A DNA stretch of 64,000 bases from a virus (lineage: Duplodnaviria > Caudoviricetes). The notes beneath the pieces are model-generated. The model did no database searches and was not told where the DNA came from. It saw only the letters and a program-made list of their open reading frames with translations. Shown piece after piece: positions 19,867 to 60,640 of this stretch (its first letter is position 1; each line of letters starts with the position of its first letter). The stretch covers positions 44,842-108,841 of the IMG/VR virus record IMGVR_UViG_3300032237_001169; one strand, 5' to 3'. Made by a program: the position numbers and the translations under genes.

Positions 19867-20115
19867 ATGGCACATACTAATAAGCAATTCATGTAGGTGG
19901 TTTATTGGGCACAAAAACATATGAAATGTGCTGTTGATGAAACGCGAATGGGACTTAGAATTACTCCCAACGTAAAAGATGTTCGCGCATCGACTTGTCA
20001 TCCCGATGATAATGGGATGTATGATTTTATGCGCTATCTTGCGAGAGTTCTCGGGGTTAGCAAACGTGATGTTGAAACTGCGGTTAAATTGGACATTCCA
20101 CTAAAAACAAAATGA
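19867..20115 (+). pseudogene. Hypothetical protein with in-frame TAG at 19894
   Basis: Promoter TTGACA-N17-TAACCT at 19828; MAHTNKQFM*VVYWAQKH... Confidence 0.55.
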
Positions 20116-20134
20116 AAGTTCAATACAAAAACGT

Positions 20135-20761
20135 TCACGGTGTTAAAATTAACTTCTTATGAAGTTTACGATGACAATTAGTACATACAATAATACATTT
20201 TTTTATTTCGCTTTGAATATCTTCTAATGTATAAATTTTATTTTTAATCATTCTACCGATATTGTTGATTTTATTTTGTTTATTTATATGATGAAAATCT
20301 AAACACGCATAGTGTGATTCATCACAAAATTTACATTTTGAGTGTTGTTTTGTATCATAAACAAGTTTAAATTTTAAAGTTCTATCCGTTGGTTTTTTAT
20401 AAAAATGAGTTTTTCGATGGCAATTGGAACATAGAATGTCACACTTATTAATTTCATTTTTTAATGATTTCATAGAAGAACCGTTTGCTATAAATTTATT
20501 AATATTTTGTATTTTTTGTTTTTTATCTCTATGATGAAATTCTAAACAACAGATTGTATTTTCGTTGCATTTAGTACATTTTGATGATGCTTTAAAATTA
20601 TTAATATAATTCGTTAAAATCTCTCTTTTTTGAGATTTGTGTTTTCGCTTATATAAGCGCACTTTGTCTTTATTTTTCAATTGCCATTTCTCAATATTTG
20701 CTTTTAATTTATTTTTGTTTTTTTGATAATATTCTTTAAAATATAATTTTTTATCTTTCAT
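20135..20761 (-). mobile_element. Tandem-HNH homing endonuclease
   Basis: Two copies of C..C.E....CL.FHH...K...EI.KC...C.NCHRK.H. Confidence 0.85.
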
Positions 20762-20778
20762 GTTTAAAATCTCCTCTT

Positions 20779-21321
20779 ATGGAATCACATATTATAAGTA
20801 GTTTTAACGTCCACGATTCGCTTAAAAATCTTTCAAAAGAAGAATTGCAAAAGTTTTATCTAAGTCATAGACATAAAGCGGCAGTTGCGATGACTCATGT
20901 TGAAAGCGATTTTAATCTATCTAACGTTATAAGGTCTGCAAACTTTTTGGGTTTCAAAGAAGTTTTTTACATTGGTGGAAAAAGAAATTGGGATAGACGC
21001 GGCGCAGTTGGTACACAAAACTATATTCCTGTTGTTTATTGCCCTACATATGAATATTTTCTAAACATAATTGAAAATCAATATATACCAGTGGCACTCG
21101 AAAATAATAAAACAAAAAATCCAATTAATATATTTCAATACAAATGGCCTATTAACTCTGTTATTGTATGCGGAGAAGAACAAAATGGTATTCCAAATGA
21201 ATTATTAAATAAAATCAATACATGTGTGGAAATTCCCGCGTATGGTACTGTTAGATCATTAAATGTTGGAACTGCGGCAGGAATTGCAATGTCTTTATAT
21301 ATGCAATGTAATTTTAGTTGA
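20779..21321 (+). CDS. SpoU/TrmH RNA methyltransferase
   Basis: N...VIRSA, GEE..GI, EIP.YGTVRSLNVGTAAGI. Confidence 0.9.
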   Translation: MESHIISSFNVHDSLKNLSKEELQKFYLSHRHKAAVAMTHVESDFNLSNVIRSANFLGFKEVFYIGGKRNWDRRGAVGTQNYIPVVYCPTYEYFLNIIENQYIPVALENNKTKNPINIFQYKWPINSVIVCGEEQNGIPNELLNKINTCVEIPAYGTVRSLNVGTAAGIAMSLYMQCNFS

Positions 21322-21325
21322 CACA

Positions 21326-21625
21326 GTGCAATGGTATCGTTATCCAACCAACAAGGAAGAATATTGGAGTGTCGTGGACAAATATTGGAGTTATTTGTTG
21401 GATATTGTGTTGCGTTTTGGTCCAGAATATGTTATACACAATGGCGAAACGAAGCGACTTGCGGTTGCTGCCACATCTTTGAAAGAAAAGCGTTCAACTG
21501 AACTTGTTGAATATTTTAACAAAACATGGGCATCTGCTCCTGATACTGGACATATTCACGCAATTCCTGCATGGCACATATTGTGTGATCTTTGCAGTGA
21601 ATCAATTGTGCTTTATGAAGATTAA
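21326..21625 (+). CDS. Hypothetical protein (start uncertain)
   Basis: WASAPD..IH..P.W..LCDLCSE motif. Confidence 0.55.
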   Translation: MQWYRYPTNKEEYWSVVDKYWSYLLDIVLRFGPEYVIHNGETKRLAVAATSLKEKRSTELVEYFNKTWASAPDTGHIHAIPAWHILCDLCSESIVLYED

Positions 21626-22181
21626 TTATCCGATATTAATGATAAGTGATATTCATACTAATTTGTTCAATTTACGACGGTTATTGAACAAATATCGAAA
21701 TCATACTGTGATTTGTTTGGGTGATATTGTTAATTTGTGGGATAAAAATATTTCAAAATTGAATCATGAAATTATTGATTTCTTTATCAAAAAGAATATC
21801 ATTTGCCTTAAAGGCAATCATGATGAATGGGTTGGCGGCAATCAAGATTTGCATGGTATTAGCGATGAACAATCAAAATATCTGGTCAATTTGCCGTTGT
21901 CATTAACAATCGAATTGCCCGACAATAAAAAATATCAATTTTATCATTATCGTCCGAATGATTTTTGGAGTTTGGAAACTCCCGATAAAGTCACATTTAG
22001 TGTTTTTTGTAATGTATATGGCGCAAATGATAATGTTGATGCAATTGTAATTGGTCATTTGCACAGTTCATATGAACTGAGATTTGAAAATCATAATAGA
22101 AAGTTAATTGGACTAGGAGCATTAAAAGAAGGACACTATGCTTTGTTGACTGAAAATGGAATACAACATTTATCACTATGA
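21615..22181 (+). CDS. Metallophosphoesterase
   Basis: ISDIH.N, CLGDIV, GNHD, GHLH. Confidence 0.85.
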   Translation: MKINYPILMISDIHTNLFNLRRLLNKYRNHTVICLGDIVNLWDKNISKLNHEIIDFFIKKNIICLKGNHDEWVGGNQDLHGISDEQSKYLVNLPLSLTIELPDNKKYQFYHYRPNDFWSLETPDKVTFSVFCNVYGANDNVDAIVIGHLHSSYELRFENHNRKLIGLGALKEGHYALLTENGIQHLSL

Positions 22182-22561
22182 GCAAGCGTAATAAACAAGA
22201 AATTAAATGGCTTAAAAAGCCAGCGGACCATAATTATCCATCTGCCGAATCATATTTGTCATTGATAATTGATCCAGCAGGAGCAAGAACAATCGTAAGT
22301 TATCTTAAAAAAGAATCAATTAGCTTTTTTAAAGCCCGTGATATTTTTCGAGCAAGTGGATTGCCATTGTTGGGTATTTCGCAACATCAAATTGAACACA
22401 ATTTGAAGAAAATTGAAAATGGAGAACCACTGTCACCTATTTTGCTAATTCGTGATGTAAAACATAAAAAGGTAATTATTGCAGATGGTTATCATCGATT
22501 GTGTGCTGTTTATCATCACAATGACAATATGGAAATTCCATGTCAAATTATTTCACTGTAA
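22178..22561 (+). CDS. ParB/Srx-like protein
   Basis: PILL.......IIADGYHRL. Confidence 0.7.
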   Translation: MSKRNKQEIKWLKKPADHNYPSAESYLSLIIDPAGARTIVSYLKKESISFFKARDIFRASGLPLLGISQHQIEHNLKKIENGEPLSPILLIRDVKHKKVIIADGYHRLCAVYHHNDNMEIPCQIISL

Positions 22562-22564
22562 AAT

Positions 22565-22897
22565 ATGAATAATAATCGCACTTATTACTACGACATCGAT
22601 GGCAAAAAAGATCCTGATTATGAAAATATTGCCGCATATCTTTTGGACGAAGGTGTATTGTTTGTGAGCAATGCAATTGATAGATACACTCAAAAAGAAT
22701 GCTTGGGATTGTATGTGTTGATCAATGATTATTTTGGTCCCGGCGCAGATGCAGAAAATGTTACTTATGATGAATTGCCAAAACTATTTGATATGTATAA
22801 AGAAAAACAATGGAATGGTGTGTCTCAATTTGTAGCAGATAAAAGAGGTATTCCAAACATTTATTGGCGAGACAAAGTTAGTGCTATTACAAAATAG
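22565..22897 (+). CDS. Hypothetical protein
   Basis: ORF. Confidence 0.65.
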   Translation: MNNNRTYYYDIDGKKDPDYENIAAYLLDEGVLFVSNAIDRYTQKECLGLYVLINDYFGPGADAENVTYDELPKLFDMYKEKQWNGVSQFVADKRGIPNIYWRDKVSAITK

Positions 22898-22986
22898 AAT
22901 TATGAACAAAAAACAAACATATCCTATCTCAAAGTATGTGGTATACATCCAGATAAGTGTGTGGTAATCTTAAAAAGTAAAGTAAT

Positions 22987-23376
22987 ATGAATAATCGCTT
23001 TAAATATAGAATTTGGGATCATTCAACTAAGAATATGATCAGTGAAGATAATAACTTATATTTTATATCCACCGACGGCAGTATTTATATAAATGATATT
23101 GTTAGTGATCGATGTGTGTATTCAGGAAATAGAAACAACAATTTTGTTGTTCAATTTTACATCGGATTAACTGACAAAATCGGTAAAGAAATTTACGAAG
23201 GAGATATTTTAAGAGCAAACAAGCAAAATGAAACATTAATTGGTTTTGTGCAATATGATGTTCTATATGGCGCATATAGACTAATTGTTAGTGATATTTT
23301 GTCTTTTACATTTTATCAACTCACTAATTTAGAAGTAATTGGCAATAAGTTTGAGAATCCTGACTTATTAAAATGA
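22987..23376 (+). CDS. YopX family protein
   Basis: FKYRIWD, GL.DK.GKEIYEGDI, EVIGN.FENP. Confidence 0.9.
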   Translation: MNNRFKYRIWDHSTKNMISEDNNLYFISTDGSIYINDIVSDRCVYSGNRNNNFVVQFYIGLTDKIGKEIYEGDILRANKQNETLIGFVQYDVLYGAYRLIVSDILSFTFYQLTNLEVIGNKFENPDLLK

Positions 23377-23606
23377 AAAAACCCTCAGTAGCCGTTGTTT
23401 ACACTGATGATGGACCGGGAGGACCGTGCGGACAAGACTGTTTCACGACATCCTGTTGGACTAAAGTGTATTTGTTTAATTCAGAGCCAGAAGCTAGAAT
23501 TTGGCTCGATAAATTCACGACACCAAAACGCAAAAGATCAAAAATAACATTATGTTATCTTGATCCTGAAATGAGTGGTGGCACGCAAACTTTAGAATAC
23601 CTATGA
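23373..23606 (+). CDS. Hypothetical protein
   Basis: ATGA-coupled ORF. Confidence 0.6.
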   Translation: MKKPSVAVVYTDDGPGGPCGQDCFTTSCWTKVYLFNSEPEARIWLDKFTTPKRKRSKITLCYLDPEMSGGTQTLEYL

Positions 23607-23974: not shown

Positions 23975-23975
23975 T

Positions 23976-32765: not shown

Positions 32766-33167
32766 ATGAATAAGACCAAGAATACCTATAATAAGCCAAA
32801 CATGACCAATCCTCTTGTTGCCGGTATGGCTGCGGCAGCTAATGTAGCATTCACTGGTAATGGTGCCAAGAGCAATGCATCGTCTCTCGACGCTTGTGTT
32901 GACTTTTTCGGCAAGGGTGCCGCTATGCGATCACAAAGTGATGCTGCCGTAATTGATCTTTTCAGCAAGTCTTTCTATCAGGATCGTCTTGTTGCTCTAA
33001 AGACGTTATTTTATATTCGCGATGTCCGTGAAGGGCAAGGTTGCCGACGTGAATTTAGAATTTGCATGAAATGGCTTGCAGAAAATTATCCAGATATTTT
33101 TCTTAAAAACATCAAAAATATTCCAGAATTCGGTCGTTACGACGATTTATTTTGTATTTTTGAATAA
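32766..33167 (+). CDS. DUF2828 (TROVE/vWA-like) N-terminal half
   Basis: T.NGA....SSLD..VDFF, RDVR.GQG, IPEFGRYDDL. Confidence 0.85.
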   Translation: MNKTKNTYNKPNMTNPLVAGMAAAANVAFTGNGAKSNASSLDACVDFFGKGAAMRSQSDAAVIDLFSKSFYQDRLVALKTLFYIRDVREGQGCRREFRICMKWLAENYPDIFLKNIKNIPEFGRYDDLFCIFE

Positions 33168-33215
33168 TTTCTTCTACGTTTTATTCATCTACTAACTATT
33201 TATATATACCATATT

Positions 33216-33359
33216 ATGGGAAGAAAAAAATTAAATAGGACTGAAGATGAACTCAAACAAATGCGAAGAATTAGACAAAAACGATATTACGAGCGAAATA
33301 AAGAAAAAAGAAATCTCGCAAGAATGCAATATTATTGGAAACAAAAAGAAAAGACATAA
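33216..33359 (+). CDS. Small basic peptide preceding the HEG
   Basis: MGRKKLNRTEDELKQMRRIRQKRYYERNKE... Confidence 0.5.
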   Translation: MGRKKLNRTEDELKQMRRIRQKRYYERNKEKRNLARMQYYWKQKEKT

Positions 33360-34098
33360 AAAAGAAACCGACTATTTTAGAATTTGTATAAAATGCAACA
33401 AAAACGTCTTTTATTCAAATAAAGGCAATTTAATTAATGCTTTAAAAGAAAAAAGACAAATGTGTTCTTCGTGTAGTAAAACAGTACATGATAAACATAA
33501 AATATATAGTAACCAATGTAAACAATGTAAAAATACAATTGTTTATTCTTGTTATACAACCTATTATAGAAATAAAAAAACTAATCCAGTTTGTAAAAAA
33601 TGTGCAATAACAAAATTCAATGAATCCAGAGGAACTTATAAAAGAAACTGTCCTACTTGTAATATTGTTATAATACACAAAACTAAATCAATAGCAAATA
33701 AAGCAATAAAAAAGAAAAGATTGTGTTTATCTTGTTCTATTTCTAAAAAAAATAGAATACGACATATTCAATATAGAAAAACACACGGAAGAGTTATAGT
33801 TCCGTGTTTCAATCATAATGCATGTTTATATTTCGGTGAGTTGAATATCCAAAATAATTGGAAATTGATACATGCAAAAAATGGAGGAGAGTTTCATATA
33901 AAAGAACTTGGATTTTATATTGATGCTTATGATAAAGAAAAAAATATTGTGGTTGAATACGATGAACCACATCATTACGATAGATATGGAAACTTAAGAA
34001 AAAAAGATGTTGACAGAATGAATGAAATTCAGCATCATTTGCAATGTGAATTCTGGCGATATAACGAGAAAACAAAAACACTAAAACGATATAAATAA
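33247..34098 (+). mobile_element. Homing endonuclease, zinc ribbons plus Vsr/EDxHD-like nuclease (start uncertain)
   Basis: Repeated CxxC; IDAYDKEKNIVVEYDEPHH. Confidence 0.8.
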
Positions 34099-34099
34099 T

Positions 34100-35218
34100 A
34101 TGATCAATCAAAATGTTAAAGACGAGGTAATTAATTTTATTGCGGCCCAACTTAAAAAGGATAGTGAAGGCGCAATTGAAAATAAAAAAATTAGCCTTTT
34201 GGCAAAGTGGATGCCATCCATTAATACTTCAAGCAAACAAAAAGTTGCACTCGCTTATAAATTTGCAAAGGCACTTGGTGTAACTCCAAAGCAGTATCGT
34301 CAGGCTATTGCTGCTTTGCGTAAGCATATTGACGTATTGGAAATCAAGCTGAGTGCTGGTAAGTTCAACGAAATCGACTATGAAAAGGTTCCAAGCAAGG
34401 CCAGCTTGCTTTACCGTAAGGCTTTCAACAAGCGCGATGGTGAACGCTATCGTAGCTATTTGAGCGCAGTCGAAAAGGGTGAAGCTAAGATTAATGCTAG
34501 TGTTCTTTATCCATACGAAATCATTCGTCCAATTGAAGAAGGTCGTGAAAACGATCCTACTGCATTGAAGACTCTTGATTTGCAGTGGAAGAATCAGCCA
34601 AATTGGCTTGCTGATAATCCTCATATGGGATTGGTCGTTTGTGATACCTCTGGTAGCATGAGTGGTCAGCCTATTTTGGTGAGTGTCAGCCTTGCAATTT
34701 ATTTTGCAGAGCGCAATGTTGGTCCGTTTAAGGATACTTTCATCACTTTTAGTAACACTCCTAGCTTGCAACAGATTATGGGCCAAACCATTGCTGAGAA
34801 GGTTCGTGGACTTAGCCGTTCCGGTTGGTCTTACAACACCGATTTGCAAGCAGCGTTCGATCTTATCTTGAGCACCGCAATTCAGAATAAGATTGCTCAG
34901 AAGGATATGCCAAATGCACTTTATATCATCAGTGATATGGCAATAGATGTTGGTAACTCAACAAATAGTATGACGAATTTTGAGCTTATCAAGCAAAAGT
35001 ATAAAAATGCTGGATACGAACTACCAAAACTTATTTGGTGGAATGTAAATGCCACCGGAAGTGATAGTCCAGTCACAATTAATGATCAGGGTACATGTCT
35101 AGTCAGTGGTTGTTCTCCTAGCATTCTAAAAAGTGTTTTGAGTGCTAAAACATTTACTCCTGTTGATGTAATGCTAGAAACTGTAAATAAACCACGATAT
35201 GATATAATTAAAATGTGA
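34100..35218 (+). CDS. DUF2828/DUF7788-like C-terminal half (vWA)
   Basis: SLLAKWMP, IDYEKVPS, LYPYE, DTSGSM, FITFS, NTDL, ISDM, WNV, VSG.SP. Confidence 0.9.
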   Translation: MINQNVKDEVINFIAAQLKKDSEGAIENKKISLLAKWMPSINTSSKQKVALAYKFAKALGVTPKQYRQAIAALRKHIDVLEIKLSAGKFNEIDYEKVPSKASLLYRKAFNKRDGERYRSYLSAVEKGEAKINASVLYPYEIIRPIEEGRENDPTALKTLDLQWKNQPNWLADNPHMGLVVCDTSGSMSGQPILVSVSLAIYFAERNVGPFKDTFITFSNTPSLQQIMGQTIAEKVRGLSRSGWSYNTDLQAAFDLILSTAIQNKIAQKDMPNALYIISDMAIDVGNSTNSMTNFELIKQKYKNAGYELPKLIWWNVNATGSDSPVTINDQGTCLVSGCSPSILKSVLSAKTFTPVDVMLETVNKPRYDIIKM

Positions 35219-35249
35219 TTTTTAATATCAGTCACAATATATATTGTAT

Positions 35250-36014
35250 ATGACATATACAAGAAAATGTGACAGATGTGATAATATCATAGAATATACA
35301 AATTCCGGTTCTTTTTACAGAGCAAAGCGTAAAAATACGCTTTGCTCCTTTTGTTTTAAAACAAATAGAAAAACTAATAAAACTCAAAAAATATTTACTA
35401 GAAAATGTCCTAAATGTAATACTGTATTAGCATATAAATCTTATCACTCGCATTGGTGGTCAATAAAACATAATTTGTTATGTAGATCATGTAGCAAAGT
35501 AGGAAAATCTATGCCTGCTGGATTTTCAGAAAAATTATCGGCAATATTTAGTGGAAAGGATAATCCAATGTATGGAAAAAAACATACCGATAAAACCAAA
35601 GAAATAATTTCCATAAAAAATAAAGGTAACAAATCTCGACTTGGACAACCTCATAATTCAATTTCAATAGAAAAACAAAGAATTTCAGCGGCAAATAGAA
35701 TAAAACAATATGGTAGTAAATCAAGAAATTTTAACAAATCTGCGTGTAATTTTATTGACGAGTATAATAAAATAAACAATATAAAATTAATACACGCATT
35801 GAATGGGGGAGAATACTCATATAAAGGATTTTTTGCAGATGGATATGATGCGACCAACAATATATGGTTTGAATACGATGAACCAACTCATTATTCAATA
35901 GATAGAATATCTCTAAAAGATAAAGATATTAAAAGAATGAACATAATAAAAGAAGGACTAAAATGTAAATTTATTAGATATAATGAACGGTTAAAAACTA
36001 TAAAGGAATACTAA
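35250..36014 (+). mobile_element. Homing endonuclease, zinc ribbons plus NUMOD3 plus Vsr-like nuclease
   Basis: CxxC repeats, NPMYGKKHT, ADGYD..NNIWFEYDEP.H. Confidence 0.8.
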
Positions 36015-43528: not shown

Positions 43529-44950
43529 ATGAATATTATTATTAATACCACTGAATGGGGTAAGAACATTTGTCTTACTACCGATAGCTACAAGCTCAAC
43601 CACTGGAATCAATATCCTATTGGCACACAGTACGTTTATTCGTATTTTGAATGCCGCAAGGGTGCTCGTTTTGCAGATGCTCCGTTTTTCGGATTGCAGC
43701 GCATTATTTTGGATCACCTTGTTGGCGTCGTTGTGACTCGCGCCAAGATTGAAAAGGCTGCACGTCTTTGCAAAGCTCATTTTGGAAATGAGAAATATTT
43801 CAATCGTGCTGGATGGGAACATATTCTCAATGTTCACGGCGGCAAACTTCCTATTCGCATTCGTGCTGTTGAAGAAGGCACTGTTGTTCCCGTTAATAAC
43901 GTTTTGATGACCATTGAAAACACTGATCCACAGTGCTATTGGCTCACCAATTTCCTCGAAACTATTCTCACTCATGTTTGGTACGGAACTACCGTTGCTG
44001 CATTGAGCCGCGAAGTTAAGCGCAAGGTTAACAAGTATTTGAAGAAGAATTCTGATGGCGGAATGCTGCAATTTTTCTTGCATGATTTCGGTTATCGTGG
44101 CGCATCTTCGTATGAAACTGCTGGCACTGGTGGTGCTGCTCATTTGATCAATTTCCTTGGCACCGACACTATCGTTGCTATGGAAACTGCAATGAATTAC
44201 TATAATGCAAATCTGGATACTCTTGCATTCAGCGTTGCTGCAACTGAACACAGCATTATGACTTCGATGGGTGCTGATGGTGAAGAGGGTGTTGTTGACC
44301 ATTTGCTCAATGAATATCCCGACGGCATTCTATCTGTTGTTTCTGATAGCTATGATATTTACAACTTCGTTGATAATATTGTAGGAAAAAAGTTCAAGGA
44401 TCGTATTGTTGCTCGTAATGGTGTATTTGTTGTTCGTCCAGATTCGATTACTCCTACTCACCAAACTCCTGAAGAGGAAATGGTTTGGATTATTGAATCT
44501 TTGTGGAAGAATTTCGGTGGCACCGTAAATAGCAAGGGATACAAGGTTATCAATCCAAAGATTCGTGTTCTTTGGGGTGACGGCATTGATATTGATGGAA
44601 TTGAAAAGATTCTTATTGCTGTTGATACTGCTGGATTTGCGACCGAAAATATTGCTTGTTTCGGTATGGGTGGTGGACTGTTGCAGAAGGTAAATCGTGA
44701 CACTCAGCGTTGCGCTTTCAAGTCGTCTGCTCAGTGCCGCAATGGTGTTTGGTACGATATTTTCAAAAATCCGAAGGATGCAACCAAGGCATCTAAGAAG
44801 GGCAAGCTCAAGTTGACCAAGATTAATGGTGAATTTGTCACGGTCATTGAGAATGAACCCGGCGAGGATTATTTGAAGGTCGTATTTGAGAATGGTGAAT
44901 TGGTCAAGTTTGTTGACTTTGACACCATTCGCAAGAATGCGGCACTCTAA
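43529..44950 (+). CDS. nadV: Nicotinamide phosphoribosyltransferase
   Basis: TDSYK..H..QYP, HDFGYRG, ATEHS, SVVSDSYD, VRPDS, GDG, FGMGGGLLQ..NRDT. Confidence 0.95.
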   Translation: MNIIINTTEWGKNICLTTDSYKLNHWNQYPIGTQYVYSYFECRKGARFADAPFFGLQRIILDHLVGVVVTRAKIEKAARLCKAHFGNEKYFNRAGWEHILNVHGGKLPIRIRAVEEGTVVPVNNVLMTIENTDPQCYWLTNFLETILTHVWYGTTVAALSREVKRKVNKYLKKNSDGGMLQFFLHDFGYRGASSYETAGTGGAAHLINFLGTDTIVAMETAMNYYNANLDTLAFSVAATEHSIMTSMGADGEEGVVDHLLNEYPDGILSVVSDSYDIYNFVDNIVGKKFKDRIVARNGVFVVRPDSITPTHQTPEEEMVWIIESLWKNFGGTVNSKGYKVINPKIRVLWGDGIDIDGIEKILIAVDTAGFATENIACFGMGGGLLQKVNRDTQRCAFKSSAQCRNGVWYDIFKNPKDATKASKKGKLKLTKINGEFVTVIENEPGEDYLKVVFENGELVKFVDFDTIRKNAAL

Positions 44951-46629: not shown

Positions 46630-46715
46630 TAAATTATGAACGATATCGTTAAACAGGTGATTGTAATGCGTAATAATTGTTTGACTTTTTAATGAATTTG
46701 ATCATATTCATATGT

Positions 46716-47565
46716 ATGATCATTTATTTAGCAACAAACAAAATTACTAACCAGAAATATATAGGACAAACAATACGATCTTTGTCAGAAAGACAATCAG
46801 CGCATGAATATGCCGCAAAAAAAGGAAGTAAATATTATTTCCACCGTGCCATTAAAAAATATGGGATAGAAAATTTCATATGGCAAATAATTGATACTGC
46901 ATCTTCATTTGAAGAATTAAATGAAAAGGAAAAAAATACATTAAATTATACGAATCTAAAAATTGTGGGTATAATTTAACTGATGGTGGGCATGGAATTC
47001 GCGGATGGAAACACACAGAAGAAACAAAAGAAAAAATTAGACAGTGCGCTATAAAAATAATAATGCACAATATTTAAAAAAATTTCTTCAAAGTGAAGAA
47101 GGCAGAAAAAAATTCATCAATACAGCTTGGAAAAACATATGAAATGAAGTTTGGAAAAGAAAAAGCGGATAAAATTATAAATGAAAAAAAGAAATCATAT
47201 AATGAAAAATACGGAGAGCAAAAAGCATCAGTAATACAAAACCGAATATCTATTAATAATAAATCTCATTTATCGTCAGTTAAAAATAAAATGTCTATAT
47301 CTCATAAAAAAGATTAGATAAAAATGGAAAAAGAATAGATATCACCGAAAATGGCAGAATCGGAATGCGAAACGAAAAAATTGGAGATAAAAATCCAAAT
47401 TATAAATACGTTGATGATACCATAATAGACACGTTAATTATTGAATATAAAATTAATAAAAAAATAACAGCGGAGATGGTAAAAAAACATGGACTGTCTA
47501 TTTATTTGATAACCCGTATATTAAAAAATAAAGGTATATATATATGTCAAAAAACGATGAAATAA
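46716..47565 (+). mobile_element. GIY-YIG (Seg-like) homing endonuclease, multiply frameshifted
   Basis: IIYLATN....KYIGQT, AIKKYG.ENF, GYNLTDGG, KHTEETKEKI; frame breaks at A-runs. Confidence 0.8.
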
Positions 47566-47921
47566 AACAAATTTTGGTGATTAGAAAGGACTTAAATATG
47601 GGCAAAGGCAAACTTGTGGCTCAAGGTAGTCACGCAAGTATTAGTTTTTTGACCAGAAAACTTCAATCTGGTCGAAAAATGACTGATGTCGAACAACAAT
47701 GGGTAAATGATAGATTTACCAAGATTTGCGTTCGTGTAGACAGTGAACAAGAATTAATTGATATTCATAACAAAGCATTGTCTCATGGCGTTGAAAGTCA
47801 TTTAATCACTGATGCTGGATTGACTGAATTTAACGGAGTGCCTACAAAAACATGTTTGGCACTTGGACCTGATTATGCCAGTAAAATTGATTCAATTACC
47901 GGACACTTGAAATTATTGTAA
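47544..47921 (+). CDS. pth2: Peptidyl-tRNA hydrolase Pth2
   Basis: KQ.LVIRKDL.MGKGK..AQ.SHA, KI, DAGLTE, T.TCLALGP, TG.LKLL. Confidence 0.95.
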   Translation: MSKNDEIKQILVIRKDLNMGKGKLVAQGSHASISFLTRKLQSGRKMTDVEQQWVNDRFTKICVRVDSEQELIDIHNKALSHGVESHLITDAGLTEFNGVPTKTCLALGPDYASKIDSITGHLKLL

Positions 47922-48118: not shown

Positions 48119-48338
48119 TCTAACAGAAGAACAATATAAGAAATTGTTGGTTGATGCTATTTGCAATCATTCTCCCGGCGCTTCTTGTGAAGAATCGCAT
48201 GAATTGGAAAAACGCGGATTTGCAAAATTCACTGGAAATCAATGAAACCAAGATTGGTCTTGGATTCCAAATGCATTGGAAAAAACGAATATTGGTTCGT
48301 TGGAAGAACTTTACAAAAATTATTTGCCCCAATCATAA
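48108..48338 (+). pseudogene. Hypothetical protein with in-frame TGA at 48243
   Basis: ...AKFTGNQ*NQDWSWIPNAL... Confidence 0.55.
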
Positions 48339-49216
48339 ATAAGTTTATATCCCGCATTTTCAATATTTTTGATTTTTTCTAATGTCAATTGATATAATTT
48401 TCCAAATTTTATTCCATTTTTTGGATTGACATCATCGGGATTATAAAATTTAGGATTACCATGCCAAAATGAACCAAAATATTCATAAACAATTTTATTT
48501 TTTTTATCATATGCATCAACTTTATATTTAATACCATTAATAATAATTATCTTTTGTCTATATTCTTTTGGAATGCCTAAAGAATCTAACCACAAAATTT
48601 CCGCTTTTGATACATTATATCCACAATGAGGACATCCGTTTTTTATGTAAATATGATTGCCTGCTTTTTGGGAAAACATTCCGTGTTGCGGACAAATAAT
48701 ATGAACGGAATTTTTCATACCGGTATAATTAACAATTGAATAATCATATTTTGAGCCGTGAATTGACTTAGACATATCAATAAACTCTTTGGTAGATAAC
48801 GTATTAAGCTGTGACAGTTTTATTGATTTGCATTTGGGACATCCTTTACCATGATTAACATGATTTAGAGGTAATTGTGTAAAAGTTCCATGCAAATTGC
48901 ATTTTATTTTTACTTTTGTTTGAGAATTTATATATTCCGTTTCAATGTAATTATACGTTCCATTATGAACTTTATTGGCATTACAAATAAATTCATCTTT
49001 AGTAAACGTTAAATTTTTATTTTGTTGTTCATATTGACATTTACTACATCCCTGTTTACGCATTATATGACAATACGGAGTTTGTAAAAAATCACCATGC
49101 AACGGACAAGTTATGACAACTTTTTTCTTGCTTCCTAGACAAACTACCTTACTATAGTCGTAGAAATTGTTATGCACCTGATTTGCTAAATCAAAATTAA
49201 AATCTTTTCGTCTCAT
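48320..49216 (-). mobile_element. Homing endonuclease with repeated zinc-binding modules and a Vsr-like domain
   Basis: Three copies of F...A..VH...YDYS....I.C..HG.F.Q....H...GC..C; VDAYD...YEYFGSFWHG. Confidence 0.85.
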
Positions 49217-49267: not shown

Positions 49268-50245
49268 ATGAGTTCCAATAATAACCAACTTAAAATTTTT
49301 TCGGGGAGAGCTAACATCGAATTTACAGAGAAAATCTGCGATAATTCGGTCATTAAACCCGGTATGATTTATCATCATACTTTTCCAAATAAAGAATCAT
49401 ACTGTCAAATCAAAGAAAATGTAAGAGGATGTGATGTATTTTTGGTCTCTTGTAAAGGAGAAAACACAAACGATTCATTAATGGAATTGCTTATTATGGC
49501 CGATGCGGCAAAAAGAGCCAGTGCGGGAAGAATTACAGCAGTTATTCCATATTTTTACTACGGTCGTTCTGATCGCAAAGACAAGTCGCGTGTACCAATC
49601 AGTGCCAAATTGGTTCTTGACATTATCGAAACTGCCGGTATTGACCGTGTGGTAACTATGGATTTGCACAGTCCTCAAGTTGGTGGATTTACCAATTTGC
49701 CATTTGATCATTTGACCTTTGAACCTGTGCTTGTCAATTATATTCGTAACAAGTATCATAGTCTTGCACTGCGTGATAGTGTTGTTTTGATGGCACCTGA
49801 TGTTGGTGCTGTTAAGCGAATTGAAAAATATGCTACTATTCTAAAAAGTGATTTTGGATTTATTAGCAAAAAGCGTATTGGTGATGACAAAGTTGAATTG
49901 CAGAGTATTGTTGGCGATGTCAAAGGCAAACACGTTATCATTATTGATGATTTGACTGAAAGCTGTGGAACTCTGATTCAAGCTGCGGATGCTTGCAAAA
50001 ACAATGGTGCAACCAATGTAACTACTGTTGTAACACACGGTTGCATTACTGAAACAGGTGTTAATCGACTTGAAAATGCACTTGTAAATAAAGTTATTGA
50101 TGAATTTGTATATAGCAATACAGCAAATATTGCCAAGAATACAAAGTTGGCAGATCGTCTTGTTGAATTGGATGTTAGCATGGTGTTTGCCAAAGCAATC
50201 AATAACATTCACAACAATGAAAGTGTAAGCGAATTGTTTATCTGA
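49268..50245 (+). CDS. prs: Ribose-phosphate pyrophosphokinase
   Basis: MELL...DA.KRASA.RI.AVIPY..Y.R.DRK, MDLH, PD.GA, IIDD....GT. Confidence 0.95.
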   Translation: MSSNNNQLKIFSGRANIEFTEKICDNSVIKPGMIYHHTFPNKESYCQIKENVRGCDVFLVSCKGENTNDSLMELLIMADAAKRASAGRITAVIPYFYYGRSDRKDKSRVPISAKLVLDIIETAGIDRVVTMDLHSPQVGGFTNLPFDHLTFEPVLVNYIRNKYHSLALRDSVVLMAPDVGAVKRIEKYATILKSDFGFISKKRIGDDKVELQSIVGDVKGKHVIIIDDLTESCGTLIQAADACKNNGATNVTTVVTHGCITETGVNRLENALVNKVIDEFVYSNTANIAKNTKLADRLVELDVSMVFAKAINNIHNNESVSELFI

Positions 50246-52411: not shown

Positions 52412-52885
52412 ATGGAAACTAAAAATACAAAAGAACAATATATCTTATATATACTTATTCGTAATGATATGCCATCTTTAAATGCAGGTAAGGCGATGGC
52501 ACAAGCAAGTCACGCCAGCAATGCATTTATCAAATCATTTGGTAATGCAAAATCAGTAAAACCGTGGATTAATGAAACCCCACAATGGTTCGGTACGGTT
52601 ATTGTTCTAAGCGCAAATGAAAAACAAGTGAATGAAATAATCCAAAACAGTGAGAACGCCAATGTTCTTTCAGAGCTAATTGTCGATCCAACCTACCCTT
52701 ATATTGTTAATAATGAAGTAGCAGCATTGATCGATGCAAAACACCACACAGTGGCACCTATTGTAAAAACAGACGGTACTGTAGTTTTACATCGAAAAGA
52801 AATTACCTGTGCGTATGTATATGGTTCCAAAGAAGACTGTAAAAAATACTCGGTCATCTACCACTGCATCCCTAGGTCAAAATAA
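52412..52885 (+). CDS. Second Pth2-like protein (C-terminus probably frameshifted)
   Basis: YILIRND..S.N.GKAMAQASHA, FGT.IVL, DPTYP; alternate frame ends KILGHLPLHP*. Confidence 0.8.
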   Translation: METKNTKEQYILYILIRNDMPSLNAGKAMAQASHASNAFIKSFGNAKSVKPWINETPQWFGTVIVLSANEKQVNEIIQNSENANVLSELIVDPTYPYIVNNEVAALIDAKHHTVAPIVKTDGTVVLHRKEITCAYVYGSKEDCKKYSVIYHCIPRSK

Positions 52886-52980
52886 AATAAACAACAAGCT
52901 TGACATGTACTGTATAAAAATATATGTACATCACATAACACTTAAATGAAATTACTTAAATTCAATAATCCTAATATTAA

Positions 52981-53784
52981 TCATTGGATTACTTCAGATT
53001 TACATTCATTTAATTTTTGAATTGCTTCGTCTAAAGTTCCAAAACTACCAATAACTTTTCTTTTTTTATTTATTGTCAATCTACAGATCCATTTACCCGT
53101 CCATGTAGAAAAATGAATACCTTCTACATTTGATTTTCGTGGAAAAAATAAAGGTTTTGGAGACGCTATACATTCTAAATATTTATTATATTTTCTTTTT
53201 AATCCAATTCTGTTATTTGTATAAATATAATTTCCTAATTTTTTAATATCTTCTTGTTTACGTATTGTAACACAAGAACTATTTCCACATTTCCGTTTAT
53301 ATTTTTTAATAGTATATTTTACATTAAGCTTTTTAAATAAATTACATACAGAAGAATAGTCTTGATTGTATCCTCCCCATAGTGTAAAAGAATGGGAACT
53401 TGATTTACAATAAAATCCACCATCGCCATCAAAATATCCTAGCCACCAAATATATTGTTTGTTTTCAGGTATTAACGATAATATTTTGTATGGATCGATT
53501 GTAGATTTTAATTTATAATTATGATCAATTAAAAACTTAACACTATCTTTATGAGATATTCTAATTCTAGCCTGTCTATTACCAAACGGTTTACCGTTTT
53601 TAGTTCGCACTCGTTCATAGTACGAGTGCTTAATTTCTTTAAACAAATATTTTATGTCATCCATATCATTTTTTATAATTTCCAACGATATGTTATCGTC
53701 TGATACATATCCATCCGCCCATAAAAATCCTAGAAGATAAATATTAGTATCATGTTTAATATCTATTATTGTTTGGTCACTCAT
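52981..53784 (-). mobile_element. LAGLIDADG homing endonuclease with an AP2-like tail
   Basis: YLLGFLWADG, WLGYFDGDG, KW...IG.F....EA. Confidence 0.9.
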
Positions 53785-53822: not shown

Positions 53823-54461
53823 ATGTTAAAAATAAATAATAAAAACGTGTATGTTACATCAGATACACATTTTGGTCATGCGCAGAAATTTCTTTATGAA
53901 AAACGCGGATTTGCATCTGTGGCAGAACACGATGCAGCAATTATAGAAAATATTAATAGCTTGGTTAATAAAGATGATGTTTTATTTCATATTGGTGATT
54001 TTTGTTTAAATACTACATACGAGAGATTTGAAGAAATTATTAATTCAATAAATTGTCAGACACTTTATTGTTTATGGGGAAATCACAATTCTCGTATTCG
54101 ACAAGCATATGAACGAGAAGTATTGGCCAAGTATGGACCTGATATTGATGTGTATCCATACAGATATAAGAATATTGTATTTGTTGGATATCATCTTGAG
54201 TGTATCATACAGGGTAAATATGTTGTTCTCAATCATTTTCCTATTGAAGTATGGGAAAATATGAAAGATGGAGCATATATGCTTTGTGGTCATAGCCATT
54301 ATAGTTTGTGTCGTACTCGTAAAGAAAGTACAGATGGTTTAACTCTTGATTGTGGTTGGGAAGGTCACAATAGTATTTATAATTTCAATGAAATTGTAGA
54401 TATTATGAAAACTAAGCAAATAAGAGCTATTGATCATCATGTCAAAGCATCAGCAGTATAA
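53823..54461 (+). CDS. Calcineurin-like metallophosphoesterase (paralog of 7064)
   Basis: TSDTHFGH, HIGDF, GNH, HFP, GHSH. Confidence 0.9.
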   Translation: MLKINNKNVYVTSDTHFGHAQKFLYEKRGFASVAEHDAAIIENINSLVNKDDVLFHIGDFCLNTTYERFEEIINSINCQTLYCLWGNHNSRIRQAYEREVLAKYGPDIDVYPYRYKNIVFVGYHLECIIQGKYVVLNHFPIEVWENMKDGAYMLCGHSHYSLCRTRKESTDGLTLDCGWEGHNSIYNFNEIVDIMKTKQIRAIDHHVKASAV

Positions 54462-55925: not shown

Positions 55926-56030
55926 CTTTCTATAAAAACCTGATATCTTGATTGCATGAAGATTGACCTATAAAAATTAGTTTAATGTTTGATGATTCCA
56001 CTTGCTACTTATTTAAAAGGAAGCAATTGG

Positions 56031-56603
56031 ATGAAAAATATAATAAATCAAAAGTTTGGTAAATTATTAGTTTTAGAATTTCATAGTAAATCATTAGCAA
56101 AAAGACCAAAAAATAAATGGAAGTGCCTATGTGATTGTGGAAAAGTAAAAATAATACAAGAGAATCATTTAATTAGTGGCACTACGAAATCATGTGGATG
56201 TTTGCATAAAAGAACTGGAAAAAATTCTCCATTCTTCAAAGGCTATGAAGACATTTCATTAGATTTTTTTAATCACATAAAAGCAGCATGTGAAAAACCA
56301 CAAAAATATAGAAAATCCCGTGAGTTTAAATTAACGATAGAGTATTTGTGGGATTTATATATAAAACAAAATAAAAAATGTGCAATATCTGGTGTAGAAA
56401 TCTTGTTTACTGAGCGCGAAGGAAGTAGAGGGCGAAGATGTTCAGCATCTCTTGATAGAATTGATTCATCAATCGGATATGTTGAAGGTAATGTTCAATG
56501 GGTACATAAAATAGTCAACATAATGAAAAATAAAACAGATATGAAAGAATTCATATCTTGGTGTAATAAAATTACAAAACATAATGAAAATAGACCTCAA
56601 TAA
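56031..56603 (+). mobile_element. HNH-type homing endonuclease
   Basis: KFGKL.V....W.CLCDCG, SCGC, SLDRIDSS.GY..GNVQWVH...N.MK. Confidence 0.9.
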
Positions 56604-57675
56604 TATTGACACTGAAAATTTCATGTCGCATGACCATTTCATCAATGGAGAAGTTGTCACGCTAATTCAGCCAAAAAACATAGGAGTTAAATGGCGGCAG
56701 GATAATAAGCATCTGCGTTCTTCCGTATGGAACTATGAAGGCGAACTTATCAGCGCAGGTTTTCCTAAATTCACTAATTTTGGGGAAAATCCTGAACATT
56801 TTCCTGTTCCACAGTCATTGAAGAATTGCACTGTTGTTGAAAAGTTGGATGGTTCATTGCTTATTGTCAGCAAGTATAAGGGTCAACTTATTCTACGTAC
56901 CCGTGGAACTGTTGACGCCCATACTATGGACAACGGGCATGAACTTGAAATTTTCAAGGAAAAGTTTTTAAATAGTATCAATCACGCTACACCCGATACA
57001 TGGAATGTGTCTATTTTATTTGAGTGGGTAAGTCCACAAAATAAAATAGTAATTAACTATGGTGCCGAACCAGATTGGTATGTTGTAGGTATTGTTCGCC
57101 ACAATGATTATTCATTGTTTGAACAATCCGAATTGGATATGTGGGCGAAGAATAAAAATTTCAAGCGTCCAGCAACATATACTTTTTCTGATGTCAATGA
57201 TCTATTAGAAAATGTTGAACATTGGAAAGGTAAGGAAGGTGTAGTTATTTACAGCCAAGACGGTCAAATGCTTCATAAAGTGAAAGCCTTTGAATATTTA
57301 AAATGTCATGCCTTTAAAGGCAACGCAACTTTTGAAAATACAATTGAAATGTTTTTCGAGTTTGATATGCCTTCATATCAAGAGTTTGAAACGAAATTAA
57401 TTGAAAAATTTGACTATGAATGTTATAAAATGGTTCGTGGACATATATCTACCATTTGCGATGGATTCAAAGAAGTATTAAATGTAGTAGATGGTATGAA
57501 TCGTTTTGTTAATAAAATTAAATCATTACCTACTCGTAAAGAGCAAGCGGTTGCCGTGTTTTCCTCTTATGGTAAAGAATCCAATAGAAGTTCATATATT
57601 TTTACAATTTTGGATGGCAAGTCATTGACGAAAGAACAACTCAAAAAGTTACTATATCAAGTCACAAAAAAGTGA
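56584..57675 (+). CDS. RNA ligase (T4 Rnl1-like)
   Basis: FPKF.N.GE, EKLDGSL, FE.VSP.NKIV, EGVV, K.K...Y. Confidence 0.85.
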   Translation: MKIDLNNIDTENFMSHDHFINGEVVTLIQPKNIGVKWRQDNKHLRSSVWNYEGELISAGFPKFTNFGENPEHFPVPQSLKNCTVVEKLDGSLLIVSKYKGQLILRTRGTVDAHTMDNGHELEIFKEKFLNSINHATPDTWNVSILFEWVSPQNKIVINYGAEPDWYVVGIVRHNDYSLFEQSELDMWAKNKNFKRPATYTFSDVNDLLENVEHWKGKEGVVIYSQDGQMLHKVKAFEYLKCHAFKGNATFENTIEMFFEFDMPSYQEFETKLIEKFDYECYKMVRGHISTICDGFKEVLNVVDGMNRFVNKIKSLPTRKEQAVAVFSSYGKESNRSSYIFTILDGKSLTKEQLKKLLYQVTKK

Positions 57676-57889
57676 CAGATAATCTGTTGTTTTTACTTTA
57701 TGAATCGTAGTTATGTATATGATTTTTTATCTTCAACAAGTATCTGATACTGAATTTAAATTCGTTTCTATATATGTTCACACTATTGATACGGCTGCGA
57801 GAGAGAAGGCACATCAAATAATGATTGAATCAAATAATAATAAATATAACGATGTAAGAGAAAAGGTAGATGATAAAAGTAGTTAAAAC

Positions 57890-57923
57890 TAACCCACCAA
57901 TTATTTGATTGGTGGGTTTTTTT
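57890..57923 (+). terminator. Intrinsic terminator
   Basis: aacccaccaat..attggtgggtt followed by a T-run. Confidence 0.85.
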
Positions 57924-57939
57924 GTAGATATTTATGTGA

Positions 57940-58665
57940 ATGAAAATAAGATCATTATTCATAAGTGATTGCCATTTAGGCAGTGAATACTGCAATCATG
58001 AAAAGCTGTTAAAGCTTTTGAGTGAAACCGAATGTGAATATTTATATATTGTAGGCGATTTTATTGATGGTTGGGTATTGAGACGAAAATTCAAGTGGAA
58101 CAACAATTATAATACAATACTTCAAAAAATATTGCGTATGAGCAGAAAAGGTACGCAAGTCTATTATATTTGGGGCAATCATGATGATTTTATTGAACCA
58201 TTTAATGAAATACATTTTGGTGATAGAATACAAATACTCAGAGAAACATGTCATATTACATTAAAAAATGAAAAAATATTAATTATACATGGTGATCAAT
58301 TTGACGGTATTGTAACAAAAAATAAATGGATTCAGCATATTGGATCAATTATATATGACTATAGTTTAGCTGTAAATAAATTGTTTAGAATATTTAAATT
58401 TAGTTTTAGTAATTTTCTTAAACAAAAAGCAAAAGGAGCTGTTAAATATATTAGCAGCTATGAAGCGACAGTTGTAAATTATTGTAGAAACAATGGATAT
58501 AATAGTATTTTATGTGGACATATACACAAACCAGAAATCAATACAATTGATGGAATAAAATATTATAATACAGGTGATTGGGTGGAAAGCAACACCTTTA
58601 TAGTTGAAACACTAGAAGGAGAAATTAAATTAATCAAATATGAAGATTTTCAAAATAATTTGTAA
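57940..58665 (+). CDS. LpxH/PlcP-like metallophosphoesterase
   Basis: ISD.HLG, VGD.IDGW, QKILR..RKG, GNHD, HGDQFD, CGHIH, NTGDWVES. Confidence 0.85.
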   Translation: MKIRSLFISDCHLGSEYCNHEKLLKLLSETECEYLYIVGDFIDGWVLRRKFKWNNNYNTILQKILRMSRKGTQVYYIWGNHDDFIEPFNEIHFGDRIQILRETCHITLKNEKILIIHGDQFDGIVTKNKWIQHIGSIIYDYSLAVNKLFRIFKFSFSNFLKQKAKGAVKYISSYEATVVNYCRNNGYNSILCGHIHKPEINTIDGIKYYNTGDWVESNTFIVETLEGEIKLIKYEDFQNNL

Positions 58666-58724
58666 TTTGCAAATTGTTTATTGATATGTATGTGTAGTTA
58701 AGGACACTACCCACACTTTGTAAT

Positions 58725-59606
58725 ATGAATAATATAAAAAATGAAGAATTGGATTTTATTAAAGATAATTTTCTAAAATTTGGAGCAAAATATTGTGAAG
58801 AAAAACTTAATATAAAAAGAGATAGAATAAACTATATAGCGAGAAATATTCTCAATTTAGGAAAATTAGATAAAAAAATTTACGGAAAAATTGTTAGCGA
58901 TGCAAAATCAAATTTTTACAAAAACAAAAATTCGTATAAAGTTGATCATCAACAATTCATAGATGTAAATTCCAAAGAAGTTGCTTATTTATTAGGATTG
59001 ATTTGGGCAGATGGAAATATTTTTGAATTTAAAAATAAAAATAAAAGAAATACTCAGATCAGTTTAGTTACAGAAGATATAGAAAATATAATCCCAGTAT
59101 TTAAGAAAACCGGCGATTGGGGCAGATGTGACAGAAGTCGTGTCGGTAAAAAACCATCAACAAGTTTTTCTAATTTCAATCCACATTTAGCTAACTATTT
59201 GATATCAAAAGGATATAAATCTAAATCACATAAAAGTGCTTGCGAGATAATAAAAACTATACCGGAAGAATTAAAACGTTTTTGGTTCAGAGGATTGTTT
59301 GATGGAGATGGTTGTTTATATGTAGATAAACAAAATAGAACTAATTTATCCATTTCATCATCATATGGTCAAGATTGGACTTATATGGAAAATTTATTTA
59401 AAAAATTAAATATAAAATATAAAATAAATAAATTAATATCCAAAACTGGAAGATCATCGAGCATTTGCGTTAGAAACAAACTAGGATGTAAAAGTTTTTT
59501 GGATTATATTTATGATGGATTTGAAATAGATCATATTGGACTCAAAAGAAAATATCATAAATATAAAAATACAAATTTTAATAAAAAAGTTAATCAACAT
59601 AAATAA
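58725..59606 (+). mobile_element. LAGLIDADG homing endonuclease
   Basis: AYLLGLIWADG, FRGLFDGDG, L.RK..K. Confidence 0.9.
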
Positions 59607-59608
59607 TT

Positions 59609-60640
59609 ATGAAAATCATATTTGGAACTTGTATAAGTGGCAACGGACATCAAACACAAGCTATTGCTACTAAGCAATTTTTAGAAAAACAAGGTATAAA
59701 TGTTATTTGTAATTTAGTAGGAAAACCATTTAAAAATAAATTACCAAAATATTTCACTGACGAATTTAACATAATACAACACGATAGTTTTGATTTTGTA
59801 TTTGATAATGTGGGTAGAGTTGTTATATGGAAAACTATATTAAAGAATACATTAGAATTACCCCGATTAATTTTGTCATTCATTAAAATCTGTAATGTCA
59901 TCAGAAAAGAAAAGCCTGATGCTATATTTAACTATTATGAACCGTTGGTAGGTCTAACCTCGTTATTCTTCAGAAACATAAAATATGTTAGTATCGGTCA
60001 TCAATATGCAATGGAAGCAAAATGCTATCCAAAAACAGATGGATTTCCTGTTCAAAAATTGTTTTTAAGTATTATTAACAAGATAACAAGTATTCGATCA
60101 AAAATTGTAGCATTAAGTTACTATGAATTTGTTGACACTGAAATGTTAGTAAGTCCACCAATACTAAGAAGTGAAAGTTATATACAATCCGATGAAAAAC
60201 AAGACTTTGTATTGGCATATCTAATGAATGAAGATATGTTGCCGCAGTTGTTTAGCGAAGCAAAAAAATATCCAAACATTAATATTGAATGTTTTACTAA
60301 ATTAACAAAAACTCACGAACAATTACCAAATGTAAAATTATATAACTTGGATGGTAAGTTGTTTCAAGAAAAAATGAAAGTATGCAAAGCAGTTATTTGC
60401 AGTGGTGGCTTTGAAACAAGCGCAGAAGCAATATATCAAATGAAACCACTATTAATGATACCAATGCCAAATCATTATGAACAATATGCAAATTGTAATG
60501 ATGCATATTTGCAATCATTGGCATTATACTCTGAAAAAATTGATTTGGGTAGAATACCTACTTTTCAAAACGGAAATAAAACATGGTTTGATACATATAA
60601 AACTCAATTAAATAAAGTTTTATCGTATTTAAATTCTTAA
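59609..60640 (+). CDS. GT-B glycosyltransferase (MJ1255/VC2487-like)
   Basis: GNGH, N.YEP, IGHQY, PPILR, GGFET..EA....KP...P...H.EQ..N. Confidence 0.85.
   Translation: MKIIFGTCISGNGHQTQAIATKQFLEKQGINVICNLVGKPFKNKLPKYFTDEFNIIQHDSFDFVFDNVGRVVIWKTILKNTLELPRLILSFIKICNVIRKEKPDAIFNYYEPLVGLTSLFFRNIKYVSIGHQYAMEAKCYPKTDGFPVQKLFLSIINKITSIRSKIVALSYYEFVDTEMLVSPPILRSESYIQSDEKQDFVLAYLMNEDMLPQLFSEAKKYPNINIECFTKLTKTHEQLPNVKLYNLDGKLFQEKMKVCKAVICSGGFETSAEAIYQMKPLLMIPMPNHYEQYANCNDAYLQSLALYSEKIDLGRIPTFQNGNKTWFDTYKTQLNKVLSYLNS

Follow-up and report, generated by a model that had tools for sequence, protein, structure and literature searches.

Native gene starts retained as short stubs beside homing endonuclease genes at five loci of an uncultured phage genome

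Anatomy of five interrupted gene starts

We analyzed a stretch of viral DNA of 64,000 nucleotides (hereafter, the window) in which homing endonuclease genes (HEGs) lie at the 5' ends of five genes, each preceded by a short orphan open reading frame (ORF) that resembles the start of the gene downstream. It makes up the 3'-terminal 64 kb of a Caudoviricetes record in IMG/VR that is 108.8 kb long (IMGVR_UViG_3300032237_001169, positions 44,842 to 108,841) and for which CheckV estimates a completeness of about 51%. It has a GC content of about 32% and carries nearly all of its genes on the plus strand. Because proteins identical to those of the window are encoded on a 313.8-kb contig, the uncultured phage is probably a jumbo phage. 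Based on Pfam matches, the five interrupted genes encode a SpoU methylase, a Pth2 protein (PTH2), a metallophosphoesterase, an RNA ligase and a glycosyltransferase. The inserts were assigned with Pfam and PHROGs to the HNH (SpoU and RNA ligase loci), GIY-YIG (Pth2) and LAGLIDADG (phosphoesterase and glycosyltransferase) families. PHROG matches (HNH, endonuclease or homing-endonuclease) were obtained for 5/5 inserts, and the GIY-YIG and LAGLIDADG proteins matched Pfam families as well. Hence, the three nuclease families named in an earlier note on this DNA all take part. The HEG ORFs are separate from the host genes, and those at the SpoU and phosphoesterase loci are antisense to them. The dataset is unusually rich for the study of this arrangement: the five cases fall within 40 kb, and both empty and occupied alleles are available.

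The earlier note had listed the start codons and peptides of the five orphan ORFs, which we call stubs, and all of them are present (Table 1). Against random windows, the similarity between stub and downstream N-terminus was significant for Pth2 (p ~0.008) and the phosphoesterase (p ~0.006), borderline for the RNA ligase and the glycosyltransferase (p ~0.05) and not significant for SpoU (p = 0.67). With only two stubs clearly significant inside the window, the case for their origin rests on relatives. No close relative was found among GenBank phages, whether by megablast of the phosphoesterase region, which returned no match, or by tblastn, which retrieved distant homologues only (33-54%) that were unusable as empty alleles. 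The comparison set was, therefore, made of related uncultured viral and metagenome contigs, identified here by L numbers. A scan of the window for promoters and terminators gave results not above chance and was not used.

Table 1. Coordinates of the stubs, inserts and downstream genes at the five loci (window positions; asterisks in peptides are stop codons).
Locus	Feature	Position	Strand	Description
SpoU	Stub	20112..20139	+	First 28 nt of native-type SpoU (MKVQYKNVH); ATGA overlap with upstream gene
SpoU	HNH HEG, two HNH modules	20135..20761	-	PHROG HNH endonuclease families, E 7e-36
SpoU	Complete foreign SpoU methylase gene, MESHI-type	20779..21321	+	Pfam SpoU_methylase, E 3e-25
SpoU	Native SpoU 3' remnant	21317..21342	+	26 nt; begins in the stop codon of the foreign copy
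Pth2	Stub	46636..46678	+	First ~43 nt of native Pth2 (MNDIVKQVIVMRNN)
Pth2	GIY-YIG pseudogene, three frames	46677..47565 (46677-46979, 47093-47317, 47365-47565)	+	Pfam GIY-YIG, PHROG homing endonuclease
Pth2	Pth2 gene	47544..47921	+	Pfam PTH2, E 9e-35; imported patch 47544 to ~47620, rest native-like
Phosphoesterase	Stub	52946..53006	+	First 61 nt of native gene, up to and including the SDLH codons (motif I of the enzyme family); putative native promoter region upstream
Phosphoesterase	LAGLIDADG HEG	52981..53784	-	Pfam LAGLIDADG_3, PHROG endonuclease
Phosphoesterase	Phosphoesterase gene	53823..54461	+	Imported patch 53823-54131, native-like from 54132
RNA ligase	Stub	55956..55983	+	First ~28 nt of native gene (MKIDL*KLV*), behind native promoter-like site
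RNA ligase	HNH HEG	55989..56603	+	PHROG HNH and endonuclease families, E 6e-22; in frame with stub
RNA ligase	RNA ligase gene	56584..57675	+	Imported patch 56584 to ~56700
Glycosyltransferase	Stub	58640..58650	+	First 11 nt of native-type glycosyltransferase (ATGAAGATTTT), at the end of the upstream gene
Glycosyltransferase	LAGLIDADG HEG	58725..59606	+	Pfam LAGLIDADG_3, E 4e-9; 90% amino acid identity to L077 copy
Glycosyltransferase	Glycosyltransferase gene	59609..60640	+	Cassette-type patch 59609 to ~59770

Native stubs and imported gene starts

Synteny with HEG-less relatives identified the stubs as the native 5' ends of the genes at all five loci, including the glycosyltransferase locus, which the earlier note had graded as weak. 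The prediction made there, that HEG-less relatives would carry the stub joined directly to the gene body, agrees with the alleles found for 5/5 genes. Past the HEG, the gene begins with a divergent patch of ~77-310 nt that is 55-70% identical to the HEG-less alleles, after which identity rises to 95-100% (the SpoU gene excepted). Such abrupt identity steps inside each target gene are the mark of co-conversion and support the proposal that the 5' segment after the HEG is an imported, divergent copy with its own start. The contrast is also apparent in the comparisons with close relatives, to which the native-type remnants are 89-97% identical and the imported copies only 55-70%. The same note had described the new starts as recoded. 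Although the synonymous differences it quoted for the RNA ligase are real, the patches are divergent alleles with many amino acid changes. Presence/absence polymorphism was evident at the SpoU, RNA ligase and glycosyltransferase loci, each with empty and occupied alleles; for Pth2 and the phosphoesterase we found empty alleles, and occupied alleles only in distant relatives.

The phosphoesterase stub matches the HEG-less contig L001 at 58 of 61 nt, and the match extends upstream at ~97% over 86 nt (93-98% from ~52870). By contrast, the gene upstream of the stub is only 60-75% identical to its L001 counterpart. HEG-less contigs L001-L003 start with MKLLKFNNPNINHW..SDLH and continue straight into the gene body. 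The stub encodes the last 8 codons and the stop of the antisense HEG. Relative to the L001-type genes, nucleotide identity is 50-80% up to position 54131 and 96-100% afterward, which translates into 49% versus 98% identity in the protein. Homologues of the LAGLIDADG protein (42-51% amino acid identity; L102, L103 and L104) all divergently adjoin a metallophosphoesterase gene. These relatives came from the protein database, an IMG/VR scan with the same protein having retrieved nothing.

At the RNA ligase locus, the stub is identical at 23 of 28 nt to the start in HEG-less L068 and L069 (MKIDLTKLD); in both contigs, the same upstream gene and spacer lead directly into ATGAAGATTGACCTTACAAAGTTAGATTT. 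The earlier note took this stub to be 5 codons long; the stub is real, but it spans ~9 codons, the sixth of which is a TAA. The HNH gene overlaps the new ligase start by 20 nt and its product is 96.6% identical to the copies in L073-L075, HEG-bearing contigs with the same stub but without the first stop. The first 120 nt of the ligase gene are 100% identical to HEG-bearing L073 and 63-70% to HEG-less L068, with ~12 amino acid changes per 40 residues in the patch. After the patch, the gene tracks L068 and then L070. The mosaic nature of the ligase gene thus indicates that the same cassette sits in different backgrounds.

The glycosyltransferase stub, though the shortest, is identical to L083 over its 11 nt and occupies the site where the gene start overlaps the upstream stop codon in HEG-less L078, L081 and L083. 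Stub and spacer recur in HEG-bearing L077. Over the first ~150 nt, the window gene is 95-100% identical to L076, L077 and L088 but 53-70% identical to L078, L081 and L083, and all alleles converge from about nucleotide 180. L076 and L088 (around 3001) have the cassette-type start with neither HEG nor stub; they may represent the donor lineage or have lost the HEG by recombination between the stub and its duplicate.

The Pth2 stub matches, at 34 of 43 nt, the Pth2 start of HEG-less L006 (and the L007 type), which reads MND[TV][IV]KQVIVMRND. Identity of the downstream gene to L006/L007 is 62-67% over the first ~77 nt and 98-100% thereafter. The family of the insert, GIY-YIG, had been recognized correctly, but this copy is a pseudogene, set apart from the intact single ORF of L088/L107 by two frameshifts and an in-frame stop.

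The SpoU locus was the most extensively replaced. Degenerate DNA-pattern scans of viral and metagenome contigs for the stub retrieved nothing, nor did an IMG/VR scan with the SpoU protein or a search of the records of four relatives; the empty allele was located through the upstream gene. In HEG-less L105 and L106, the upstream gene and the ATGA overlap are followed by MRIQYKNVHDFLQTLDVADIKDY... without an insert. The stub equals the L106 start (MRIQYKNVHDFLQTLDV...) at 25 of 28 nt, and the alignment to both contigs stops at 20139. Close homologues of the window SpoU all begin MESHI..., like the downstream gene and not like the stub. The downstream protein is 86% identical to the L094 type and only 43% identical to the native L106 type along its whole length. 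The short remnant after it is 96% identical to L106 3162-3187, and the right junction has TTGA as microhomology. Thus, the stub is the native start, as claimed before; however, not merely the 5' end but the whole gene is foreign, with native remnants at both ends. Contig L097 has the same upstream gene, an HNH homologue in the same position (60% amino acid identity) and a 23-codon stub with an internal stop, MKVEYKNVHDFL*TLNVEEIKNY*, that fits the N-terminal consensus of the SpoU family. The window stub is a truncated form of this longer one. In L097, 123 nt of the native SpoU C-terminus (3040-3162) also persist directly after the foreign stop codon. A second HNH homologue in the same position (L100, 54% amino acid identity) lies cleanly between another upstream gene and SpoU, without a stub, and L094 has the same arrangement minus the HEG.

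Stub and new start are paralogous within the window, as they would be if the 5' end had been duplicated in tandem, the copies had diverged in place and a HEG had later landed between them, with nothing imported. Yet identity to the native alleles of close relatives is high for the stub and low for the new copy, the new copies are those of the HEG-bearing L073 ligase allele and of the L076, L077 and L088 glycosyltransferase alleles, the identity step inside the genes is abrupt, and close relatives in which near-identical copies stand without a HEG are absent. As stubs resemble native alleles and new starts match those of other genomes at up to 100%, duplication in place is effectively excluded.

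We also considered whether the inserts could be group I or group II introns or be skipped by ribosomal bypassing, so that the stub would serve as exon 1 and be joined to the gene by RNA splicing or during translation. Phages do have HEGs next to short N-terminal exons that escaped annotation, one example being the ICP1 terminase gene (PMC10448857). However, Rfam returned no family match anywhere in the window, even at E<=1. The downstream genes are, in 5/5 cases, uninterrupted ORFs from a new ATG that have a complete N-terminus aligning from residue 1, and they lack the stop-containing gap typical of bypassing. Further, two of the HEGs are antisense, the RNA ligase stub stops at codon 6 and the SpoU stub is truncated. 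The lack of any intron RNA match, the antisense HEGs and the stops in several stubs make splicing very unlikely. This agrees with the splicing-free arrangement proposed in the earlier note, since nothing indicates, or requires, that the stub be joined to the gene.

Recurrence of the junction and origin of the stubs

The layout recurs beyond the window: the same junction of stub, HEG and patch is found in distant relatives (L102 and L107) whose HEGs are 51-63% identical to those described above. In L102, a LAGLIDADG gene 51% identical to that of the phosphoesterase locus is divergent from a phosphoesterase gene, the stub (...KNVFISSDLH) ends at the same GATTTACAT and the stop codon of the HEG is again supplied by stub sequence. 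In L107, an intact GIY-YIG gene ~60% identical to the pseudogene is preceded by the stub MDKVKQVIVI*RD and followed by a Pth2 gene sharing 50% identity with its window counterpart; the leader past the junction is homologous as well. Hence, stubs are still recognizable when the target genes are only 50-60% identical. The same cassettes are also present in other backgrounds (L073-L075, L077 and L097). On the other hand, HEGs of the same families stand beside the same target genes without a stub in L100, L103 and L104, and HEG-less genomes (L094, L076 and L088) have the downstream-type start. The stub is, therefore, not an obligatory part of the element. Stubs also decay, as shown by stop codons in the RNA ligase stub of the window and in those of L097 and L107 and by the truncation at the SpoU locus.

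From this anatomy, the mosaic breakpoints, the pairs of empty and occupied alleles and the recurrence of the layout, we infer a repair pathway. Our best explanation, which the sequence comparisons make quite probable, is that free-standing HEGs cut the 5' part of the neighboring gene and co-convert it, and that the stub arose as the left junction at the break and then traveled with the cassette. Each HEG would most likely cut the HEG-less allele a few codons to a few dozen codons into the gene, and repair of the break would copy the HEG and the adjoining 5' segment of the donor gene into the recipient. The right junction would be an ordinary homologous crossover inside the gene or, at the SpoU locus, a microhomology join after the whole foreign gene. 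The left junction would form at the break and not in the upstream flank, as expected from one-sided or illegitimate repair of the double-strand break, and would thereby strand the promoter, start codon and first 4-23 codons of the recipient as the stub. Expression of the gene would then proceed from the imported start, without splicing. Once formed, the stub, HEG and patch could be inherited and spread as one cassette by ordinary two-sided homing, for which the stub would afterward provide homology right up to the break. The basic element would be an ordinary free-standing HEG beside its target gene and the stub, most simply, a by-product of the position of the left junction. Positional support for site-specific cleavage comes from the recurrence of the same junction in L102 and L107.

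Several points weigh against this explanation. It presumes, from sequence comparisons, that cleavage occurs where the stub ends and that the patch withstands it. At the glycosyltransferase locus, the upstream gene is homologous (~80%) in all relatives, and missing left-hand homology is, therefore, no obvious cause of the stub. No donor genome with the exact imported patch was found for Pth2 or the phosphoesterase. Lastly, a maintained design accounts no less well than a one-off scar for the very same junction being shared by HEG lineages of 51-63% identity.

A maintained design is what would be expected if the stub were an integral, selected part of the element. Like an intron-borne HEG, the HEG would then insert precisely at its cut site within the gene. 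The stub, renewed at each homing event, would supply a transferable homology arm on the left and might also work as promoter and leader for the HEG. This alternative differs from the by-product explanation solely in whether the stub is functional, and we regard it as rather unlikely. The junction is, as described, identical at a HEG identity of 51% (L102) or ~60% (L107) and a target identity of 50-60%. The phosphoesterase stub and promoter block is closer to L001 than is the gene upstream, which suggests that the stub moved with the cassette, and at the RNA ligase locus the HEG follows the stub immediately and in the same reading frame. Selection on the stub is harder to reconcile with HEGs of the same families that do without one beside the same targets and with the stops and deletions that stubs gather. 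Nor can a leader function be general, because two of the HEGs are antisense to the stub. Among 62 Pth2 loci from viral contigs, none had a convincing stub; a borderline one (L041) has no HEG and was treated as a chance match. Within the window itself, 4 or 5 other HEG-like genes lack a detectable stub (by in-window similarity, those at 2514-3269, 33247-34098, 35244-36014 and 48320-49216), a result that also contradicts the view of the arrangement as systematic here.

With somewhat less than even confidence, we raise the broader possibility that the stub, HEG and replacement 5' segment constitute a distinct class of self-propagating cassette. In such a class, the free-standing HEG would reside at its own cut site within a gene, like an intron-borne HEG, a duplicated gene start would take the place of splicing, and the stub would be renewed in each recipient as a break-proximal homology arm, dispensing with the need for a conserved upstream neighbor. 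Three nuclease families would have adopted it.

Relation to known systems and neighboring elements

Among described systems, the arrangement most resembles the mORF gene hybrids of fungal mitochondria, known for atp6 of Allomyces macrogynus and for atp6, atp9, cox2 and nad3 of Glomus (PMC3630166, citing Paquin et al., 1994). In both, an endonuclease ORF lies inside a gene, a foreign duplicate of the gene terminus stands beside it, the native terminus is left as a remnant (5/5 cases here) and no splicing is involved. The identity contrast is also similar: native remnants of mORF hybrids are 91-98% identical to the sister genome and inserted copies 64-81% (PMC3630166), compared with 89-97% and 55-70% in the window. 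However, the mORF replaces the carboxy terminus, whereas the phage cases replace the 5' (amino-terminal) end. As a consequence, the phage segment has to bring a start of its own and leaves the native promoter and start cut off from the gene. Other differences are the host (a phage instead of an organelle), the participation of three nuclease families, the replacement of a whole gene in one case and the reading frame of the endonuclease, which in mORF hybrids is often in phase with the gene and here is a separate ORF, antisense in 2/5 cases.

Intronless homing with co-conversion of flanking markers is established for the free-standing seg and mob endonucleases of phage T4, such as SegF, SegG and MobE (PMC2988022; PMC2790892). 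Like these, the phage cases described here comprise free-standing GIY-YIG or HNH genes beside conserved genes, presence/absence polymorphism and mosaic alleles from conversion, and their enzymes probably also cut in the neighboring gene. In contrast to the T4 cases reviewed in PMC2988022, for which the HEG is cleanly intergenic and no duplicated start is mentioned, the left junction lies inside the target gene and LAGLIDADG enzymes take part as well. One-sided homing with microhomology junctions has been demonstrated experimentally in T4 (PMC2988022, citing Parker et al., 1999). The homology on one side, the microhomology junctions and the acquisition of new sites reported there fit the TTGA and the double remnant of the SpoU locus, although the T4 system was a laboratory construct with an intron and the products in the window are natural, fixed and transmitted. 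HEGs also split phage genes, as in nrdA/mobE of Aeh1 and in gene 39/60 of T4, with mobA and bypassing (PMC2988022). Those genes, too, remain functional with a free-standing HEG in the coding region and without splicing, but they are expressed as two pieces or through ribosomal bypassing. In the stub cases, the duplicated start spares the gene from being divided. A full-text literature search for earlier phage cases retrieved no description of HEG-associated 5' stubs, a weak negative given that subscription journals were largely outside its coverage.

Replacement of a gene end by a HEG-borne copy had so far been documented at 3' ends, in fungal mitochondria; the five loci extend the phenomenon to 5' ends and to viruses. 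They also provide natural, sequence-level evidence for how free-standing HEGs invade phage genes whose neighborhoods differ, and account for sharply mosaic 5' gene ends and for orphan mini-ORFs annotated as hypothetical or mis-started. Moreover, the end of each stub points to a probable cut site, and each stub and patch supply putative sensitive and resistant targets for four intact, uncharacterized nucleases (two HNH and two LAGLIDADG). These predictions are directly testable and could serve nuclease engineering.

The window contains additional HEG-like genes of diverse types. An intact GIY-YIG gene with NUMOD3 and NUMOD1 domains (2514-3269) overlaps the start of the next gene (3247-4044). 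In the region 32766-36014, two HEG-like ORFs, one without a family match (33247-34098) and one with NUMOD3 (35244-36014), flank or split a gene in a gene-in-pieces layout. On the minus strand, 48320-49216 encodes a 298-aa DUF723/zinc-finger protein of a HEG-associated type, directly upstream of a PRPP synthetase gene (49268-50245). A fragmented HEG (18774-19892), which was outside the stub-similarity scoring, is part of a 2.6-kb insertion relative to L097 (17262-19861) that comprises a 434-aa gene and antisense pieces of a GIY-YIG/I-TevI-like HEG. The pieces (18774-19028 and 19626-19892) are broken by plus-strand mini-ORFs with QL repeats, and L106 has the 434-aa gene without them.

The gene immediately upstream of the SpoU stub (19866-20115) begins with an ATG at 19866; its codon at 19893-19895 is an in-frame TAG, in place of the CAG of L106, and a GTG comes immediately after it. 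Recoding of TAG was rejected as an explanation: TAG ends 6 of 107 ORFs, and reading through it gives short extensions only. TAG is thus a normal stop in this genome, and the codon at 19893-19895 represents a nonsense mutation, a restart or a sequencing error.

Relative L001 has, at 842-1600, an HNH gene 42% identical to that of the RNA ligase locus, located before a His_Phos gene that now starts with GTG. A short ORF before the HNH gene (MTVFF...KLQIF) resembles the MTVYFFMKPQKIF start in L003 and is possibly another stub case. Adjoining the phosphoesterase stub in the window is a 157-aa gene (52412-52885) whose AGKAMAQASHASNAF motif resembles the Pth2 signature, which makes it a possible second Pth2-like gene of the window, albeit a divergent one.

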